64,000 nt of DNA from Shigella phage JK55: the sequence record MK962758; one strand, 5' to 3'. The notes beneath the pieces were generated by a model. The model saw only the letters and a list, made by a program, of their open reading frames with translations, made no database searches and was not told where the DNA came from. A program made the position numbers and the translations under genes. Positions 3,656 to 29,209 of the stretch are shown piece by piece (within the stretch, counting starts at the first letter, position 1; each line of letters opens with the position of its first letter).

Positions 3656-4204
3656 ATGAAGAAATTGATTCTAGGTTTGTGCTTAATGTTTACAGCACAC
3701 TTATCTTATGCAGTTGACTGCCCAGAGCTATCAATTAGCCAAAAAGTAAACATGTTAAAAGCTTACCAGTATGGTGAGAATAACATGGGCAAAGGTTGGG
3801 GTATCACTCTAGCTGCTATAGCCTTACAAGAGTCAGAGTTAGGTCTGAAGGTAGAGAATAAAAAGACACATGATTATGGTATTTTCCAGAATCACTTGAA
3901 GACTGTTGTAAAGCGTAACAAAATTAGTCCTAATGTGGCTAAAAAGAAACTCTTAAAAGACTTTGACTATGCTGCGAAGGAAACGCACAAAGAGCTTGAG
4001 TTTTGGACAAAGGTGCATGGTCAGCCAAAGTCAAAGAAGACTTTACAAAAAGTTTTAGCATCATATAATGCTGGGTATTCGTACAGAATCCCTAAAGCTA
4101 AGAAATACTCTCAAGATGTCTATAACAATATGAAAGTTATCGCTCAATGTGAATTTGCAACAAACATTTCTAAGGTAAATCATGAAAAAATTAAGAAAGT
4201 CTGA
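3656..4204 (+). CDS. secreted lytic transglycosylase-like protein (SLT-domain motifs)
   Basis: N-terminal signal peptide (MKKLILGLCLMFTAHLSYA); motifs LQESELGL, YGIFQ and SYNAG match the E-S / G-x-x-Q / AYNxG pattern of family-1 lytic transglycosylases. Confidence 0.45.
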   Translation: MKKLILGLCLMFTAHLSYAVDCPELSISQKVNMLKAYQYGENNMGKGWGITLAAIALQESELGLKVENKKTHDYGIFQNHLKTVVKRNKISPNVAKKKLLKDFDYAAKETHKELEFWTKVHGQPKSKKTLQKVLASYNAGYSYRIPKAKKYSQDVYNNMKVIAQCEFATNISKVNHEKIKKV

Positions 4205-6905: not shown

Positions 6906-7691
6906 ATGGGTATTGTAAAAATCATCAATGGCGATATCTTTGCCGCATTTGATAAAGGTAAGTTTGACATCATTGGTCACGGTTGCAACTGTATGAATTT
7001 AATGGGTGCAGGTATCGCTGACAAGATTTCTAAACTTTACCCAAAAGCATATGAGACCGATACAGAAGTTTATCTATATGCAGGTGGTATAGGTCACAAA
7101 CCCTGTGAGAATTTACTAGGTAATTTCTCTGTAGCACGCTTAAAACAAGGTCGTATAGCTAACCTTTACACTCAGCTTAAGACTGGTAAAGATGCACGAT
7201 ACAGTGTTTTAGAGTCATCTTTGAAACAGCTTAACAGATACTGTGAAGTTAATCAGTTGAAGAAAGTTGGTTTACCTATGATTGGTGCAGGTATCGGTGG
7301 GCTGGACCCTCAAGCTGTCACAGTTATCATCAATCAGGTGATGAAGAGTGTAGATGTTTATCTGTATGTCTATGAAGGCGAGATGTACCACAAGTTACGC
7401 TCAGGTTGGAAGAACTACTGTGAACCAGAATACTTTGCAGGTGTAGCAGTGTTCACGGATAACGCAGTTACCCTCTTCAGACGAAGAAAAGGTAAGATAC
7501 ATCAAAGTAACCCTCCGGTTGAAAAGATGTCTCTAGGTAATGCTCTAGTTACCCACCTGTCGAAGAGCAATCACAGAATGGCTGTGACATTTGGTAGTGA
7601 TGCAGAAGCTTATATCTATGCAAGAACTGATGAGGATATCGAGGCAATCTTCTCTTCACCAGAAGTTACCTTCTTAGACGCAAAGAACTAA
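6906..7691 (+). CDS. macro-domain protein, TARG1/OARD1/DarG-like (ADP-ribose processing)
   Basis: N-terminal 160 aa show GDIF...HGCNCxNLMGAGIA...LPMIGAGIGGL...VYLYVY, matching the TARG1-type macro-domain pattern (GDLF, MGAGIA, MPRIGCGLDRL); about 100 aa of C-terminal extension unassigned. Confidence 0.55.
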   Translation: MGIVKIINGDIFAAFDKGKFDIIGHGCNCMNLMGAGIADKISKLYPKAYETDTEVYLYAGGIGHKPCENLLGNFSVARLKQGRIANLYTQLKTGKDARYSVLESSLKQLNRYCEVNQLKKVGLPMIGAGIGGLDPQAVTVIINQVMKSVDVYLYVYEGEMYHKLRSGWKNYCEPEYFAGVAVFTDNAVTLFRRRKGKIHQSNPPVEKMSLGNALVTHLSKSNHRMAVTFGSDAEAYIYARTDEDIEAIFSSPEVTFLDAKN

Positions 7692-7760
7692 GAAACTCTG
7701 TAGAATATTCACAATAGACTAAGCCTTTCTTATCTGGTAAATTTTTCAGGTAAGGAGGGC

Positions 7761-7943
7761 TTTTTCATTTCAGGATTGTGCAGGTATATTTCTATAGAGA
7801 AATCTGTAGAGAAAATTTTGAACTCCAAAGAGAAAATTCATTTTCAAACTGTGCAGGTAATCTCCAAAGGGCTTTTTCATTTTCAAAACGTGCAGACCCC
7901 GCTCAGGTCGGGCAAGAAAAATCATTTTAGAATTGTGCAGGTA
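7761..7943 (+). repeat. four direct copies of about 22-bp motif TTCATTT(T)CAnnA..GTGCAGGTA in intergenic region
   Basis: Copies near 7765-7786, 7838-7860, 7876-7896, 7922-7943; a fifth partial copy follows the terminator at 5380-5394. Confidence 0.6.
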
Positions 7944-7967
7944 GGTTTTTATAGAGAGCCAGACCAA

Positions 7968-7998
7968 CCCCTCTCCCCCTCTTACTCCCCCTCTCCCC
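7968..7998 (-). other. G-quadruplex-forming motif on minus strand (GGGG-AGA-GGGGG-AGTAAGA-GGGGG-AGA-GGGG); C-rich i-motif strand on plus
   Basis: Plus strand reads CCCCTCTCCCCCTCTTACTCCCCCTCTCCCC; four C/G tracts of 4-5 with loops of 3, 7, 3 nt in an otherwise AT-rich intergenic region. Confidence 0.6.
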
Positions 7999-8119
7999 AA
8001 AAGTCAAGAGAAAAATTTGTAGCGGATTGAAAAATAATTCTTGATTTGTGTTCTGTTTTGTGGTAGTCGTGTGCGCCCGTTTCATTACAGTTTTGCCAAA
8101 GATATTTTTAAAATTTTTC

Positions 8120-8179
8120 TTGACTCTTTGAACGGGGTTATCTAGTATTTGCATCAACGGGGAGGGAATGACCTTCCCC
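8120..8179 (+). promoter_or_regulatory. type-A early cassette: promoter (TTGACT-17-TAGTAT) plus 5'UTR hairpin GGGGAGGGAATGACCTTCCCC and GGAG RBS
   Basis: -35 at 8120-8125, -10 at 8143-8148, hairpin 8159-8179, conserved tail ACTAAATAAAGTCCTAAACTGGAGATTCAAAAATG to start 8212. Confidence 0.6.
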
Positions 8180-8211
8180 ACTAAATAAAGTCCTAAACTG
8201 GAGATTCAAAA

Positions 8212-8592
8212 ATGAAATATCGTGCGCCTAAATTCATCAACAAAGACAACTTTCGTAGCGTACTGGAGAAGTCACTTGATGAAAATTTCAAAGGTAATGT
8301 GATTGTTGTTCACTCGTTCAATTTTAAGTATGATATCAACGGGAATAAAATCAACCATTACACGGCAACCATGTTAGATGGCACTCTTTCAAGTGAAAAA
8401 ACAATTCTACATGCACTTGCTGGGCGTGGAAAAAACCTGATAAGATGCGATAAGAGACGTTATCAGGGTGGCGCATATGGTTACGATGACGCTATTTATC
8501 ATCTTGAAAATATGGGCTATCAAGTAGAAAAAGCTGGAGTATCACAAATCATCGGGAGCGATGGTTATGTAACAATCTTCAAAATTAACTGA
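8212..8592 (+). CDS. hypothetical small early protein
   Basis: ORF directly behind type-A cassette with GGAG RBS 8 nt upstream. Confidence 0.6.
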   Translation: MKYRAPKFINKDNFRSVLEKSLDENFKGNVIVVHSFNFKYDINGNKINHYTATMLDGTLSSEKTILHALAGRGKNLIRCDKRRYQGGAYGYDDAIYHLENMGYQVEKAGVSQIIGSDGYVTIFKIN

Positions 8593-10255: not shown

Positions 10256-10310
10256 TTTTGGTTTTTAAAGCAAGTAAATTACTAATCAACGGGGAGGAAA
10301 TGACCTCCCC
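10252..10310 (+). promoter_or_regulatory. type-A early cassette (TTGATT-17-TAAATT; hairpin GGGGAGGAAATGACCTCCCC)
   Basis: -35 10252-10257, -10 10275-10280, hairpin 10291-10310 with compensatory stem change relative to other copies. Confidence 0.55.
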
Positions 10311-10343
10311 ACTACATAAAACCCTTAAACTAGGAGATTCAAA

Positions 10344-10616
10344 ATGTATACTACTAACAACGGTCGCACCTTAAACGTAACCCTGCGCCACTATGTGAAC
10401 GGTGTAATGCACTTCGAGGATTTACAAGCCGAACAACATATTCTGAATTGGCAACTTGCAGGGCTGCAAAAAACTGCTACAGGATACGGTAAAAAGATTC
10501 CAACTAGTTGGAAAGTATACTACGAAGGCCGTTTGCGTAGAATTTATCAAGATGTACACAGCAATAGCGCAACAAGTTACATCATGGTAAAAGGTAAAAA
10601 GCTGCATTTAGTATAA
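10344..10616 (+). CDS. hypothetical small early protein
   Basis: ORF behind type-A cassette. Confidence 0.55.
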   Translation: MYTTNNGRTLNVTLRHYVNGVMHFEDLQAEQHILNWQLAGLQKTATGYGKKIPTSWKVYYEGRLRRIYQDVHSNSATSYIMVKGKKLHLV

Positions 10617-11116: not shown

Positions 11117-11176
11117 TTGACACTGGTTTTTAGATAGATTAAATTACACATCAACGGGGAGGGAATGACCTTCCCC
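11117..11176 (+). promoter_or_regulatory. type-A early cassette (TTGACA-17-TAAATT; hairpin GGGGAGGGAATGACCTTCCCC)
   Basis: -35 11117-11122, -10 11140-11145, hairpin 11156-11176. Confidence 0.6.
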
Positions 11177-11208
11177 ACTAAATAAAGTCCTAAACTGGAG
11201 ATTCAAAA

Positions 11209-11412
11209 ATGGCTATTATTAATGGTTTAACCATTGAAACTACACACATCAAAGATATCAAAGTTGGTGATATAGTCCTTTCCCACGGCGTAGAAAAAAC
11301 TGTCACTGCAAAGGATATCAAAGAGGATTCTTTCATGGGTAGGACTCTCTTCGGTGATTCTTATTGCTTAGGCTATCTTGCAGTTTTAAAAGTTGTCAAA
11401 AATAACAAATAA
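11209..11412 (+). CDS. hypothetical small early protein (67 aa)
   Basis: ORF behind type-A cassette. Confidence 0.5.
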   Translation: MAIINGLTIETTHIKDIKVGDIVLSHGVEKTVTAKDIKEDSFMGRTLFGDSYCLGYLAVLKVVKNNK

Positions 11413-12340: not shown

Positions 12341-12397
12341 ACAAGCCTGATAAAAGTCTGTAAATTGTCAATCAACGGGGAGGGAATGACCTTCCCC
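12338..12397 (+). promoter_or_regulatory. type-A early cassette (TAGACA-17-TAAATT; hairpin)
   Basis: -35 12338-12343, -10 12361-12366, hairpin 12377-12397. Confidence 0.55.
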
Positions 12398-12432
12398 ACT
12401 AAATAAAGTCCTTAAACTAGGAGATTCCAAAA

Positions 12433-13524: not shown

Positions 13525-13558
13525 ATTGTCAATCAACGGGGAGGGAATGACCTTCCCC
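13499..13558 (+). promoter_or_regulatory. type-A early cassette (TTGACG-17-TAAATT; hairpin); promoter lies inside 3' end of upstream gene
   Basis: -35 13499-13504, -10 13522-13527, hairpin 13538-13558. Confidence 0.55.
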
Positions 13559-13603
13559 GCTAAACAAAACCCTTAATCAACTTCCTAAACTGGAGATTCT
13601 AAA

Positions 13604-13852
13604 ATGGCTACTATCCGCGCAACTGTTAACGAATTTGGCTTCTACTCTCTGGACGTTAAATTTGACCTTGTAGGTACTGATAACGCCTTTGAAATGGTGA
13701 AAGGCCTTATCAGCCAGACCATCAGTGACTACAACCCCTCTGATGAATTCTGGAAAGAAACAAAACAAGAAGCCCTTAAAGATGGTTACACTTATCACTA
13801 TTGGGGCGAAAAAATTGTCTCCCTGTACTACGACAAAAAAGGCACTAACTAA
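13604..13852 (+). CDS. hypothetical small early protein (82 aa)
   Basis: ORF behind type-A cassette; last gene before the non-coding region. Confidence 0.55.
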   Translation: MATIRATVNEFGFYSLDVKFDLVGTDNAFEMVKGLISQTISDYNPSDEFWKETKQEALKDGYTYHYWGEKIVSLYYDKKGTN

Positions 13853-13890: not shown

Positions 13891-13941
13891 AGCCCCTTTC
13901 CCATATAGATTCGATAGAGTCTATCTCATAGGGGCTTTTTT
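13891..13941 (+). terminator. terminator-like hairpin (AGCCCCT...AGGGGCT + TTTTT) closing the plus-strand early array
   Basis: 7-bp stem with long structured loop then TTTTT; preceded by smaller hairpin GGGGCTAAATAGCCCC at 13864-13879. Confidence 0.5.
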
Positions 13942-14288
13942 ACGTCTTATCAAATCCCTTATACAACCCTTTCCCTTTCCTTTCCAGAATCTTATCAGAC
14001 CTTAAAAGCAATAACTCTATAGCTTACTCTATAGCCTTTTATTAAATCAACTTAAATATAAGCCCATAACCCGAAAGGGAAGGGCAACCATTTAAACGCT
14101 CTATAAAGCCCTATAACGGCCTTATTAACCTAACTTAAGGGATTGCATTACCTCACCCTTAAAAGCCCTTTATAAAGCTTCCCAGAGCCTTAAAAGAATC
14201 TTATAAGGGTATAAGCTTTATTATCTCGTTAGCTATCTTGTGAATAACTAAAAAGGGCTTGTTAGTGTCTTAAAAGTATGTTATAGGG

Positions 14289-14389: not shown

Positions 14390-15051
14390 GTTATGCTTTT
14401 AAGGCACTTGTTAGCAACTTGTTAGCCCCTTGTTAAATCTCTGTTAAGACCACGTAAAAGCCTTGTAAGAGTCTTTGACATAGCCTTTAAAGCTTCTGTA
14501 AAGCCTTATAAAAAGGTGTCTGTATAGTTGGGCTGTAGATACTAGGAAGAGACTTAAAAGAGCTTACAAGGAGCTATAGAGAGCTTTTAAGAGGGCTATT
14601 TAGAGATTCACTAGGGATTGGTAACAATACCAATTAAGAGGGAAAGGGAACGATAAGAAAAGAGTAGTGACCATGTTAACAACTTGTTAAAAAGATTAAA
14701 CACTTGTTAGGAACTTGTTAATTATCTTAACAAAATAACTCTTAACATTTAACTACTTAGCTCTTGTTAGTCATCTGTTAAGATTCTGTAAAGCCTATTC
14801 AGCAACTGTTAAGATTCTGTTACATCCTTGTTAGTTCTGTTAAGAATCTGTTAAGGCCTTTGAAGATTTGTTAAGAGCTTGAGAGAGTTGTTAAGAGATT
14901 GTTAAGGATATTTTAAAATTTTGCAAAGTACTTGTAAGGGAGTTGTTAAGGGCTACCAAGCAGATATACATCCTAATCAGATATTTTTCAGTTCCTTCAA
15001 AGACCCTAAAAAATGACTTGATAGCTCTATTTTATAAAAATTTTAAGATTC
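14390..15051. repeat. 662-bp tandem direct repeat, copy 1 (iteron-rich)
   Basis: Sequence from 14390 repeats at offset 662; all line-by-line spot checks identical. Confidence 0.85.
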
Positions 15052-15713
15052 GTTATGCTTTTAAGGCACTTGTTAGCAACTTGTTAGCCCCTTGTTAAAT
15101 CTCTGTTAAGACCACGTAAAAGCCTTGTAAGAGTCTTTGACATAGCCTTTAAAGCTTCTGTAAAGCCTTATAAAAAGGTGTCTGTATAGTTGGGCTGTAG
15201 ATACTAGGAAGAGACTTAAAAGAGCTTACAAGGAGCTATAGAGAGCTTTTAAGAGGGCTATTTAGAGATTCACTAGGGATTGGTAACAATACCAATTAAG
15301 AGGGAAAGGGAACGATAAGAAAAGAGTAGTGACCATGTTAACAACTTGTTAAAAAGATTAAACACTTGTTAGGAACTTGTTAATTATCTTAACAAAATAA
15401 CTCTTAACATTTAACTACTTAGCTCTTGTTAGTCATCTGTTAAGATTCTGTAAAGCCTATTCAGCAACTGTTAAGATTCTGTTACATCCTTGTTAGTTCT
15501 GTTAAGAATCTGTTAAGGCCTTTGAAGATTTGTTAAGAGCTTGAGAGAGTTGTTAAGAGATTGTTAAGGATATTTTAAAATTTTGCAAAGTACTTGTAAG
15601 GGAGTTGTTAAGGGCTACCAAGCAGATATACATCCTAATCAGATATTTTTCAGTTCCTTCAAAGACCCTAAAAAATGACTTGATAGCTCTATTTTATAAA
15701 AATTTTAAGATTC
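15052..15713. repeat. 662-bp tandem direct repeat, copy 2
   Basis: Identical to 14390-15051 in every segment compared. Confidence 0.85.
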
Positions 15714-28405: not shown

Positions 28406-28963
28406 ATGAGATATTTGAAGTATGCTTCATGGATTTTCTTAGCTTTACTAGAACCATTTGCAGCAACCCTAGCAGTCATCTTAGCACCTTTCGTAGTTCC
28501 ATTCTACAGTGAGAAGAAAGGGCATCTACCTTTTGGATTCAGATGGATGGAGACCTATGACAACCCGATTGATGGTGATAAAGGCCACGTTGAGAGATGG
28601 GCTAAGATTAGAAAGATTGGCAAGCTCGGTGTTTATATGCAGAGAGTTGGATGGCTCTGGAGAAACAAAGCTTATAACTTCTCTTACCATGTATTAGGAA
28701 GAGATGTAAAAGATGTTACTAAGTGGAAAGGTAATATCAACGTAAGTTCTGACCCTGAAGATAATCAGACAGGTTATCTCCTAATGTGGAACAACAATGC
28801 TTGGGGATTATTCGCTTTTATTCCGTCAATTAAAATCTTTGGTAAACAGTTTTACTGGAGAATTTATGTTGGATGGAAACTAAAAAGTGTTGTCCCAGAA
28901 GAAAGAGCATTCTCAAGGGAAAGAGTTATGTTGGCATTCTTTATTCATCCACTGAGAAAGTAA
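28406..28963 (+). CDS. hypothetical membrane protein embedded in tRNA cluster
   Basis: N-terminal hydrophobic segments (IFLALLEPFAATLAVILAPFVVPF); AAGAGG RBS 9 nt upstream. Confidence 0.55.
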   Translation: MRYLKYASWIFLALLEPFAATLAVILAPFVVPFYSEKKGHLPFGFRWMETYDNPIDGDKGHVERWAKIRKIGKLGVYMQRVGWLWRNKAYNFSYHVLGRDVKDVTKWKGNINVSSDPEDNQTGYLLMWNNNAWGLFAFIPSIKIFGKQFYWRIYVGWKLKSVVPEERAFSRERVMLAFFIHPLRK

Positions 28964-28971
28964 AGATTTAA

Positions 28972-29047
28972 AGGGGATTAGTTTACAAGGTTAAAACCTC
29001 GGTCTTTGAAATCGAAGAAGTTGGTTCAATTCCAACATCCCCCGCCA
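28972..29047 (+). tRNA. tRNA-Gln (anticodon TTG)
   Basis: Anticodon stem TCGGT/ATCGA loop CTTTGAA, T-arm GTTGGTTCAATTCCAAC, CCA encoded. Confidence 0.55.
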
Positions 29048-29049
29048 AT

Positions 29050-29128
29050 GCTCCATTACTCCAATTGGCAGAGAGGCCAGACTTAAAATCTGTGTTATGT
29101 ATCGGTTCGAATCCGATATGGAGTACCA
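29050..29128 (+). tRNA. tRNA with anticodon TAA (Leu by code) but short variable arm
   Basis: Acceptor GCTCCAT/ATGGAGT, anticodon loop CTTAAAA, T-arm ATCGGTTCGAATCCGAT, CCA encoded; D-arm paralogous to the CAA tRNA. Confidence 0.45.
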
Positions 29129-29133
29129 AATTT

Positions 29134-29209
29134 AGCGGTATAGCATAACTGGCAATGCAGCAGTCTCTGAAGCTGTCTTATTAAGGTTCAAATCCTTATG
29201 CCGCTGCCA
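29134..29209 (+). tRNA. tRNA-Gln (anticodon CTG)
   Basis: Acceptor AGCGGTA/TGCCGCT, anticodon loop CTCTGAA, T-arm TAAGGTTCAAATCCTTA, CCA encoded. Confidence 0.5.

Follow-up and report, generated by a model that had tools for sequence, protein, structure and literature searches.

The described elements that come closest to the one reported here are Rho-dependent terminators with C-rich, G-poor Rho utilization (rut) sites, such as tR1 of phage lambda with its rutA and rutB. Our subject is a 31-nt C-rich tract at positions 7968–7998 of a 64,000-nt stretch of Shigella phage JK55 (MK962758), hereafter the window, to which all positions refer. As at the lambda site, the RNA in question would be an untranslated, unstructured, C-rich and G-poor segment of about 40–80 nt between an early gene and the next transcription unit, and we propose tentatively, at a probability of roughly 0.3, that the tract acts as an insulator against rightward read-through transcription. 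The likeness is one of sequence and is incomplete: unlike tR1, the tract has no boxB-like hairpin and no known N-type antiterminator, lies 200 nt after an intrinsic terminator, and is absent from relatives that carry an alternative sequence at the locus (allele B, described below). The boxA of lambda nutR, CGCUCUUAC, lies within rutA and agrees with the tract centre CCCUCUUAC in 8 of 9 positions. A lambda-type N utilization (nut) site was nevertheless not recovered, as the sense RNA has no predicted stem-loop downstream of the boxA-like CUCUUAC.

Three further systems invite comparison. The G-quadruplex (G4) and small-RNA promoter of Neisseria gonorrhoeae pilE resemble the locus in that a single G4 motif lies in non-coding DNA upstream of genes, and a promoter-like −35 element in the phage would start transcription inside the G-tracts, giving a G-rich RNA from a C-rich template. 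The −10 element of the phage is poor, however, half of its G-tracts would fall in the promoter spacer, and there is no recombination or antigenic-variation system. Purine-pyrimidine (Pu-Py) mirror repeats upstream of promoters (H-DNA; the nuclease hypersensitive element III1 of c-MYC) are likewise G/C-rich and capable of triplex, G4 and i-motif formation, and the tract lies 120–190 bp upstream of a strong promoter, where negative supercoiling generated by transcription could drive the transition; in contrast to these elements, it belongs to a bacterial virus, has no known binding proteins and does not keep its mirror symmetry in the sister genus. Conserved sequence block II of mitochondrial DNA is a G-run at which a hybrid G4 forms and transcription stops to provide the primer. 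It, too, is a short conserved G-run in a non-coding control region with promoters, and by this likeness the tract might couple transcription to replication; yet, given the known direction of transcription, it is the C-rich strand of the tract that is RNA-like, the G-rich strand serving as template.

The source phage is a Felixounavirus, a Felix O1-type myovirus with 99.6% identity to Escherichia phage HY02. Phages of this type are classic tools for typing Salmonella and find wide use as candidates for biocontrol and therapy, yet the control of their transcription and replication is explicitly described as unknown in PMC3185647. Literature on Felix O1 and Felixounavirus terminal repeats, transcriptome and transcription starts, and on phage G-quadruplexes, yielded no description of the tract, which is undescribed in the annotation and the papers searched. 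The timing of Felix O1 transcripts by reverse transcription PCR was considered as evidence of an intergenic transcript and rejected, since "gene 13" is the macro-domain gene itself.

A candidate Rho-loading site ahead of an early promoter

On the plus strand the tract reads CCCCTCTCCCCCTCTTACTCCCCCTCTCCCC, a run of C-tracts that forms the core of a 40-nt G-free run (7963–8002) holding 24 C. It marks the highest sense-strand C-minus-G value of any 40-nt segment in the window, at 25 (C26/G1; mean −1.4, standard deviation 4.2), as well as the highest density of YC dinucleotides, with 22 in 40 nt against a mean of 3.5 and a runner-up of 14. The genes of this genome carry more G than C on the sense strand, and strong sense C>G segments are confined to the non-coding ends of transcription units; in fact, all six top 78-nt C>G segments lie either here or in the convergent zone at 13.9–16.2 kb, at such unit ends. 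No structure is predicted for the sense RNA across the tract (z = −0.01), and RNA folding compared with shuffled sequence gave no significant fold on either strand of either allele. Furthermore, the tract lies more than 250 nt past the stop codon of the macro-domain gene, downstream of the intrinsic terminator t13 and upstream of the promoter P2, and is therefore untranslated; local open reading frames (ORFs) were rejected as coding. Both in location and in composition (a C>G bubble, YC-rich and unstructured over about 40–80 nt; C28/G9 in 78 nt) it is thus what a rut site is expected to be. The C-minus-G value per 40 nt amounts to 20–26 in the A forms of Felixounavirus and in Mooglevirus, and to 14 in Erwinia phages.

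The terminator t13 (7721–7762, plus strand) serves the macro-domain gene and consists of a 17-pair hairpin followed by a T-run. It is tabulated for Felix O1 with a folding energy (dG) of −21.8 kcal/mol (PMC3185647 Table 2), and its position carries a terminator annotation in phage wV8. Polymerases that escape t13 would transcribe about 200 nt of untranslated RNA and would then make CCCCUCUCCCCCUCUUACUCCCCCUCUCCCC, an unstructured, G-free and YC-rich RNA. Host Rho, which would load onto such C-rich untranslated RNA, may release the polymerase ahead of the invariant early promoter P2, about 120 nt downstream, and the G-rich, G4-capable template strand could contribute pausing. We infer the read-through, the Rho loading and insulation as the selected function from the sequence properties of the tract, which are those of Rho-loading sites. 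A layout of terminator plus pyrimidine tract recurs at the end of the rightward unit, where a hairpin with T6 (13892–13941) is directly followed by a 42-nt G-free tract (13945–13986). This second pyrimidine tract includes CCCTTTCCCTTTCCTTTCC; the last rightward gene occupies 13604–13852.

Several points weigh against the insulator proposal. Phages with allele B, which are the majority, have no rut-like signal in the intergenic region (maximum C-minus-G 7–8), and in these phages the function is dispensable or otherwise provided. A rut site leaves unexplained the near-invariant CTCTTAC at the centre of the tract, the fixed length of the tract and of the 52-nt slot that contains it, and the four repeats that separate the tract from t13. 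With C28/G9, the 78-nt segment stands at the 99.8th percentile for C>G, which is good but not extreme, and non-coding regions may be free to drift in composition.

Structural potential, conservation and alleles

The minus strand of the tract, GGGGAGAGGGGGAGTAAGAGGGGGAGAGGGG, comprises G-tracts of 4, 5, 5 and 4 nt separated by loops of 3, 7 and 3 nt (AGA, AGTAAGA and AGA), which is the canonical motif of an intramolecular G4 (four tracts of at least 3 G, loops of 1–7 nt). The same 31 bp constitute an i-motif and mirror-repeat candidate on the plus strand. No other such motif occurs on either strand of the window, also when loops are relaxed to 12 nt, and the remaining 22 kb, taken from the near-identical HY02, contain no canonical motif with loops of up to 12 nt (maximum |G4Hunter| 1.2). 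By this count, the tract is the only canonical G4/i-motif sequence of the whole ~86-kb genome. Its G4Hunter score (25 nt) of −2.36 is the extreme value of the window. Among 600 composition-matched Markov simulations of 64 kb each (orders 1 and 3), a score of 2.36 was never attained (highest 2.32), and any canonical motif was present in just 4–6% of them. Runs of at least 5 nt number six of G and six of C in the 64 kb, two of the C5 runs belonging to the tract. A preliminary description of this DNA had given the same G-tract sequence at the same position, had held G/C runs to be rare elsewhere, and had named the prediction score and a genome-wide count as checks, with scattered equivalents as the outcome that would speak against it; the sequence and position proved exact on re-reading, and the scores and counts bear out the rest, no scattered equivalents being found.

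In addition, the tract forms an almost perfect homopyrimidine mirror repeat, in which two 14-nt arms flank a 3-nt spacer and a single A is present. One purine in 31 nt and arms of this length agree with the definition of an H-DNA-prone sequence (a Pu-Py mirror repeat with arms of at least about 10 nt and a short spacer). ViennaRNA with G4 energies includes the quadruplex in the minimum-energy fold of the G-rich strand. The stability of i-motifs near neutral pH is favoured by C-tracts of 5 or more; the C-tracts measure 4/5/5/4 here and 3–4 in Mooglevirus. "G4/i-motif-forming sequence", the term of the preliminary description, is thus correct as a statement of predicted potential, and the tract is equally a candidate H-DNA mirror repeat and, as sense RNA, a putative Rho-loading-type stretch.

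This potential raises the alternative of a non-B DNA element, in which supercoiling or strand opening would let the tract fold into a G4, i-motif or H-DNA and thereby modulate the downstream promoter-like modules P1 and P2 or mark an origin together with iteron-like repeats. We consider this rather unlikely. It draws on the uniqueness and the extreme score of the motif, the 14-nt mirror arms in Felixounavirus and the ViennaRNA fold, on the place of the tract, which immediately follows the four conserved direct repeats and precedes an invariant strong promoter by 120–190 nt, and on the assembly breaks and the transposase hot spot described below. Its origin version suffers from the want of an identified initiator gene or DNA-unwinding element, and the array of four direct repeats shows no helical phasing (spacings 73/39/45, 75/41/45 and 37/37/39).

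Natural variants bear on the same alternative in both directions. Two sets were compared, 12 A-type variants and then 16 distinct A-type variants, covering two genera, and the pattern of four G≥3 tracts was retained in 11/12 and 15/16 of them. The variant L003 has lost the canonical G4 motif. The best-conserved part of the tract is its 7-nt central "loop", CTCTTAC, which is almost invariant, and not the C-tracts, and mirror symmetry is not kept in relatives, decaying to arm matches of 6–9 in Mooglevirus and being degraded in wV8. G is absent from the sense strand of the tract in all 16 A-type variants. Changes in the right arm are C/T transitions, and the left arm tolerates A. In all three genera, the flanking genes have the C-rich strand as their sense strand, as would also be expected from conserved synteny.

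Comparison across genera points to a considerable age of the element. Mooglevirus phages of Citrobacter and Shigella keep the whole layout of the control region with a macro protein that is 63% identical, and Kolesnikvirus phages of Erwinia keep it except for the right arm of the tract and an adjoining 24-nt block, their macro proteins being 36–44% identical. After the fourth repeat, the Erwinia phages read CGCCCACCCTCCCCTCTACCG, whose homology to the Mooglevirus tract (CCCACCATCCCCTCTTAC) is clear over the left arm and the centre. The C-rich core therefore predates the three genera and is more strongly conserved than the neighbouring macro protein. The Erwinia homologue has just three C≥3 tracts. 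As regards the G4/i-motif of the preliminary description, then, a capable sequence that is unique in the genome and mostly keeps its four tracts stands, whereas the tracts are not the best-conserved part, the Erwinia form has three of them, and allele B has no G4 on that strand.

In Felixounavirus, the slot between ...GCAGGTAGGT and AAAAGTCAA... occurs in two forms, each exactly 52 nt long. Allele A, the form found here and defined by alignments of relatives (7947–7998, plus strand), consists of TTTTATAGAGAGCCAGACCAA followed by the tract, while allele B reads GGGTGCAGGTGGGGATGTCGCCATTTCTCACAAGGCTACCACATCTGGAAAT and is about 38% identical to it position by position (hand count). Allele-specific searches recovered A in 70 deposited genomes, among them Felix O1, FO1a, wV8, HY02 and UAB_Phi87, and B in 140. 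The tract is thus dispensable or replaceable in nature, because about two thirds of deposited Felix O1-like genomes have an unrelated 52-nt sequence in the slot. Allele B offers no G4 potential on the strand that is G-rich in allele A, which counts against a non-B DNA element. Allele B (for instance at 4032–4100 of locus L014) carries on its plus strand a weak G-rich run, GGTAGGTGGGTGCAGGTGGGG (G4Hunter +1.52), with weak two-tetrad potential on the strand opposite to that of allele A. In the variants checked by hand, no compensatory changes were seen in the hairpin of allele B.

Phage VpaE1 (NC_027337) has allele B with a 10-nt deletion, and the records LR597663, LR597658 and LR699048 (VpaE1_ev78, ev108 and ev035) have allele A, which at the sequence level suggests that the slot is exchanged by recombination among Felix O1-like phages. 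Felix O1-type sequence with the slot is also present in GU169904 (Staphylococcus phage SA1, 128935–128999; allele A) and in MG065664 (Campylobacter phage A132, 70138–70204; allele B); these are probably contaminated or chimeric records.

The two alleles also raise the possibility, again a fairly improbable one in our judgement, that the tract is filler without a function of its own, having arisen where the CTCC part of the repeat unit expanded into low-complexity sequence, serving as a spacer of fixed length and persisting by descent. That two unrelated sequences both measure exactly 52 nt, that allele B is the majority form, and that the right end of the tract together with the adjoining invariant block resembles the repeat unit (CTCCCCAAAAGTCAAGAGAAAAATT vs CTCCAAAGAGAAAATT) would fit such an origin. 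It accords poorly with the core CCCACC[AC]TCCCCTCT(T)AC, which is shared by genera whose macro proteins are just 36–63% identical, with the constant right-arm length of the 16 variants, none of which shows run-length slippage despite runs of C4–C6, and with the slot of 46–48 nt in Mooglevirus, whose length is accordingly not universally fixed.

Record ends and transposase junctions at the tract

Three genomes deposited as complete end in or beside the tract: EC106 (ON210138, start) terminates at ...CTCTTACTCCCC, LMP34 (MK482690, end) at ...CCCCTCTCCC, and Andreotti (MN850610, start) at ...GAGCCAGACC, followed by a snap-back artefact. TH10 (MT446388, end) terminates about 50 nt away, and the record ends of all four correspond to positions 7960–8050 of the window. 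In EC106 and Andreotti, the sequence from the tract to a downstream cassette is missing. With a random opening point, at least 4 of 60 listed records would end within about 100 nt of one site with a probability of roughly 1e-5 (a rough estimate); for allele B, none of the 40 records among the matches listed ends within 500 nt of the slot. In the IMG/VR metagenome 3300045988, Felixounavirus contigs likewise end (L004, L005) or start (L037, L040) inside the tract.

A physical discontinuity of the virion DNA at the tract, either a genome end or a site-specific nick, would account for such record and contig ends, and is nevertheless very improbable. In contigs of metagenome 3300045988, Nextera/Tn5 mosaic-end adapters abut the tract centre (7979–7987), and the 9-bp junction CTCTTACTC is common to two different contigs, a pattern that marks the mirror-repeat centre as a hot spot of tagmentation. 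Contigs L004 and L005 end 19 nt past the single-nucleotide polymorphism that distinguishes them from L003, and some of the metagenomic breaks are also explained by branching of the de Bruijn graph between co-occurring strains. As adapter junctions and graph branching account for the contig ends, their interpretation as natural DNA ends was rejected. The ends of UAB_Phi87 have been mapped by Bal31 digestion and run-off sequencing, with a terminal repeat of 608 bp (PMC4837284). In the UAB_Phi87 record the first 542 nt equal the last 542 nt and map to 28631–29172, about 21 kb from the tract. Since this phage has an identical tract, the tract is not a genome end, and an assignment as packaging site was rejected as well. 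The repeat maps to the tRNA region, so that the physical ends of this phage type lie inside the window; a C-rich segment within it (29025–29064) has a G4Hunter score of −1.28 and one C5 run.

The breaks and the Tn5 hot spot amount to an inadvertent polymerase/transposase assay and, as indirect evidence, are consistent with an unusual structure or flexibility of the tract in vitro; they would also be expected of any low-complexity stretch rich in G/C homopolymers. In practical terms, Illumina/Nextera assemblies break at the tract, and it is where some "complete" GenBank genomes stop.

Layout of the control region

The tract belongs to a control region of ~520 nt whose arrangement is kept across three genera of the Ounavirinae. 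Upstream lies the macro-domain gene (6906–7691, plus strand; Pfam PF01661, E = 1e-7), which equals Felix O1 gene 13, is annotated in relatives as a macro domain protein or putative phosphatase, and is the last gene of a rightward early unit that spans rIIA to macro. t13 is followed by four locus-specific direct repeats (7765–7945, plus strand), found by repeat search, with a unit of about GAACTCCAAAGRG..TTCATTTTCAA..TGTGCAGGTA. The copies are about 39 nt each, with GTGCAG anchors 73, 39 and 45 nt apart, and four copies are also present in Mooglevirus and in the Kolesnikvirus phages of Erwinia. The preliminary description had placed the tract downstream of four direct repeats, between a macro-domain gene and the first of several cassette genes; the repeats are indeed there, at about 7765–7945, as are the Pfam-supported macro gene upstream and the small cassette genes with repeated leaders downstream.

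The repeat motif shows no enrichment elsewhere in the window, and the TGTGCAGGTA repeats were rejected as a genome-wide promoter motif for this reason. Comparison of the repeat unit by eye with sites of host factors (DnaA, IHF, CRP, Fur, ArgR, sigma-E and sigma-32) gave no convincing site, and none is claimed. The minus strand of the repeats has TGGAGATT/TGGAGTTC, which resembles in inverted orientation the ribosome-binding region of the downstream leaders.

Directly after the slot lies the 24-nt block AAAAGTCAAGAGAAAAATTTGTAG (7999–8022, plus strand), which is identical between Felixounavirus and Mooglevirus except for G/C at 8008, which follows the allele, and T/C at 8017 (L020). It carries TTGACT on the minus strand (8007–8002), and this element could belong to a leftward promoter, with a 17-nt spacer, TAAGAG at 7984–7979 and a GGGGA discriminator, producing a non-coding RNA across the repeats; initiation in the G-tracts could then open the DNA and let a G4 fold. 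We regard such a promoter as distinctly unlikely. The −35-like TTGACT and an A/T-rich stretch upstream of it lie in the invariant block and mirror the sequence upstream of P2 as inverted repeats, the distance from TTGACT to TAAGAG or TAATAG is 17 nt in 12/12 A-type variants, and allele B has the hexamer TAGCCT with TG at −15/−14. On the other side, TAAGAG ends in G and not in the T of a sigma-70 −10 hexamer, a consensus scan gives no minus-strand promoter here, and the Erwinia homologue is without the block that bears TTGACT. Moreover, the minus strand has no terminator, no conserved RNA fold (z = 0.41) and no Rfam match. The Rfam search as a whole gave no match at E ≤ 1 except noise.

Further downstream, the promoter-like module P1 (8041–8069, plus strand; TTGAYT-17 nt-TAnnnG), recognized from the repeat family and the alignment, doubles as a degenerate fifth copy of the unit seen in the direct repeats. 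Its second hexamer ends in an invariant G and is thus not a standard sigma-70 −10 element. P2 (8120–8148, plus strand; TTGACT-17 nt-TAGTAT with an A/T-rich element upstream) is near-consensus and invariant across the genera, and its promoter-plus-leader unit is found again before other cassettes. The mRNA of the first cassette carries a 5′-untranslated region (5′-UTR) hairpin, GGGGAGGG-AATGA-CCTTCCCC (8159–8179, plus strand), which was read from the sequence and has copies at 10284, 11149 and 12370; relatives have a hairpin of different sequence at the first site. A ribosome-binding site separates it from the first cassette gene (8212–8592, plus strand), which encodes 126 aa without a Pfam family.

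The leader that recurs before cassette genes comprises CATCAAC, the same 5′-UTR hairpin and the ribosome-binding region CTGGAGATTCAAAAATG, with copies at 8152–8214, 10284–10346, 11149–11211, 12370–12432 and about 13530–13605. Close relatives differ in how many and which small cassette genes follow P2 (8212–8592 here; 1213–1401 in L059), and phages ekra, LF82P3 and Z31 have an extra cassette of ~480 nt flanked by repeated leader and terminator sequences. This ~480-nt "insertion" was rejected as linked to the tract, being an extra downstream cassette gene.

Translation of the tract itself is highly improbable, although the minus-strand frames are open in all lineages and several records annotate hypothetical proteins. 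The candidates are the minus-strand ORFs 7770–8000 and 7927–8181, which would give a Gly/Arg-rich peptide, and the plus-strand ORF 7776–8030. The minus strand is T-poor, which makes stop codons rare from composition alone, and no Shine-Dalgarno sequence or promoter serves any of these ORFs. Protein coding was rejected on either strand: in the N-terminal stretch every difference between close relatives is non-synonymous, the ORFs annotated there differ in frame and C-terminus from genus to genus, and the 24-nt block does not vary at all, third codon positions included. The physical-end and the coding explanations are thus essentially excluded.

Two observations lie outside the control region. 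A perfect 662-bp tandem duplication (14390–15051 and 15052–15713, 100% identical) occupies 14390–15713, inside a ~2.4-kb non-coding zone of 33% GC between convergent transcription units that is rich in minus-strand promoter-like TTAACA-18 nt-CAGAAT sites and without a match in Rfam; a genuine repeat, an origin region and an artefact of assembly are all conceivable. An exact scan of IMG/VR with the tract centre (CCCCTCTTAMTCCCC) gave many chance matches and about 70 contigs of crAss-like gut phages, which keep the 15-mer GGGGAGTAAGAGGGG about 60 nt downstream of thymidylate synthase, on the sense strand and in the orientation opposite to Felix O1. The context is ...ACGTTTATA-GGGGAGTAAGAGGGG-T..., at loci L071–L185 (for example L112 4417–4431 and L145 5468–5482) and at about 1700–1850 of cr53_1 (NC_055889). 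With just two G-tracts, this 15-mer cannot be an intramolecular G4, and its occurrence may be a coincidence or a shared recognition motif.

The element is best described as a C-rich tract of fixed strand that is conserved yet dispensable and belongs to the early control region of the Ounavirinae; it is of a known kind, either a Pu-Py/G4 tract or a rut-like site. The control region around it is now defined, from the terminator through the four repeats, the variable slot and the invariant block to the promoters. A more far-reaching idea, to which we give little credence, is that the tract is a structure switch (G4, i-motif or R-loop) that, with the four iteron-like repeats, controls early transcription or starts replication in the Ounavirinae, allele B being the structure-free alternative in a natural on/off polymorphism. 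If true, this would to our knowledge be the first case of a quadruplex element with a function in a virulent enterobacterial phage, and the 15-mer of the crAss-like phages would hint at a recognition motif common to both. Through its natural A/B polymorphism, the element is unusually easy to test and offers a ready-made natural experiment on the relevance of quadruplexes or of Rho loading in a lytic phage.

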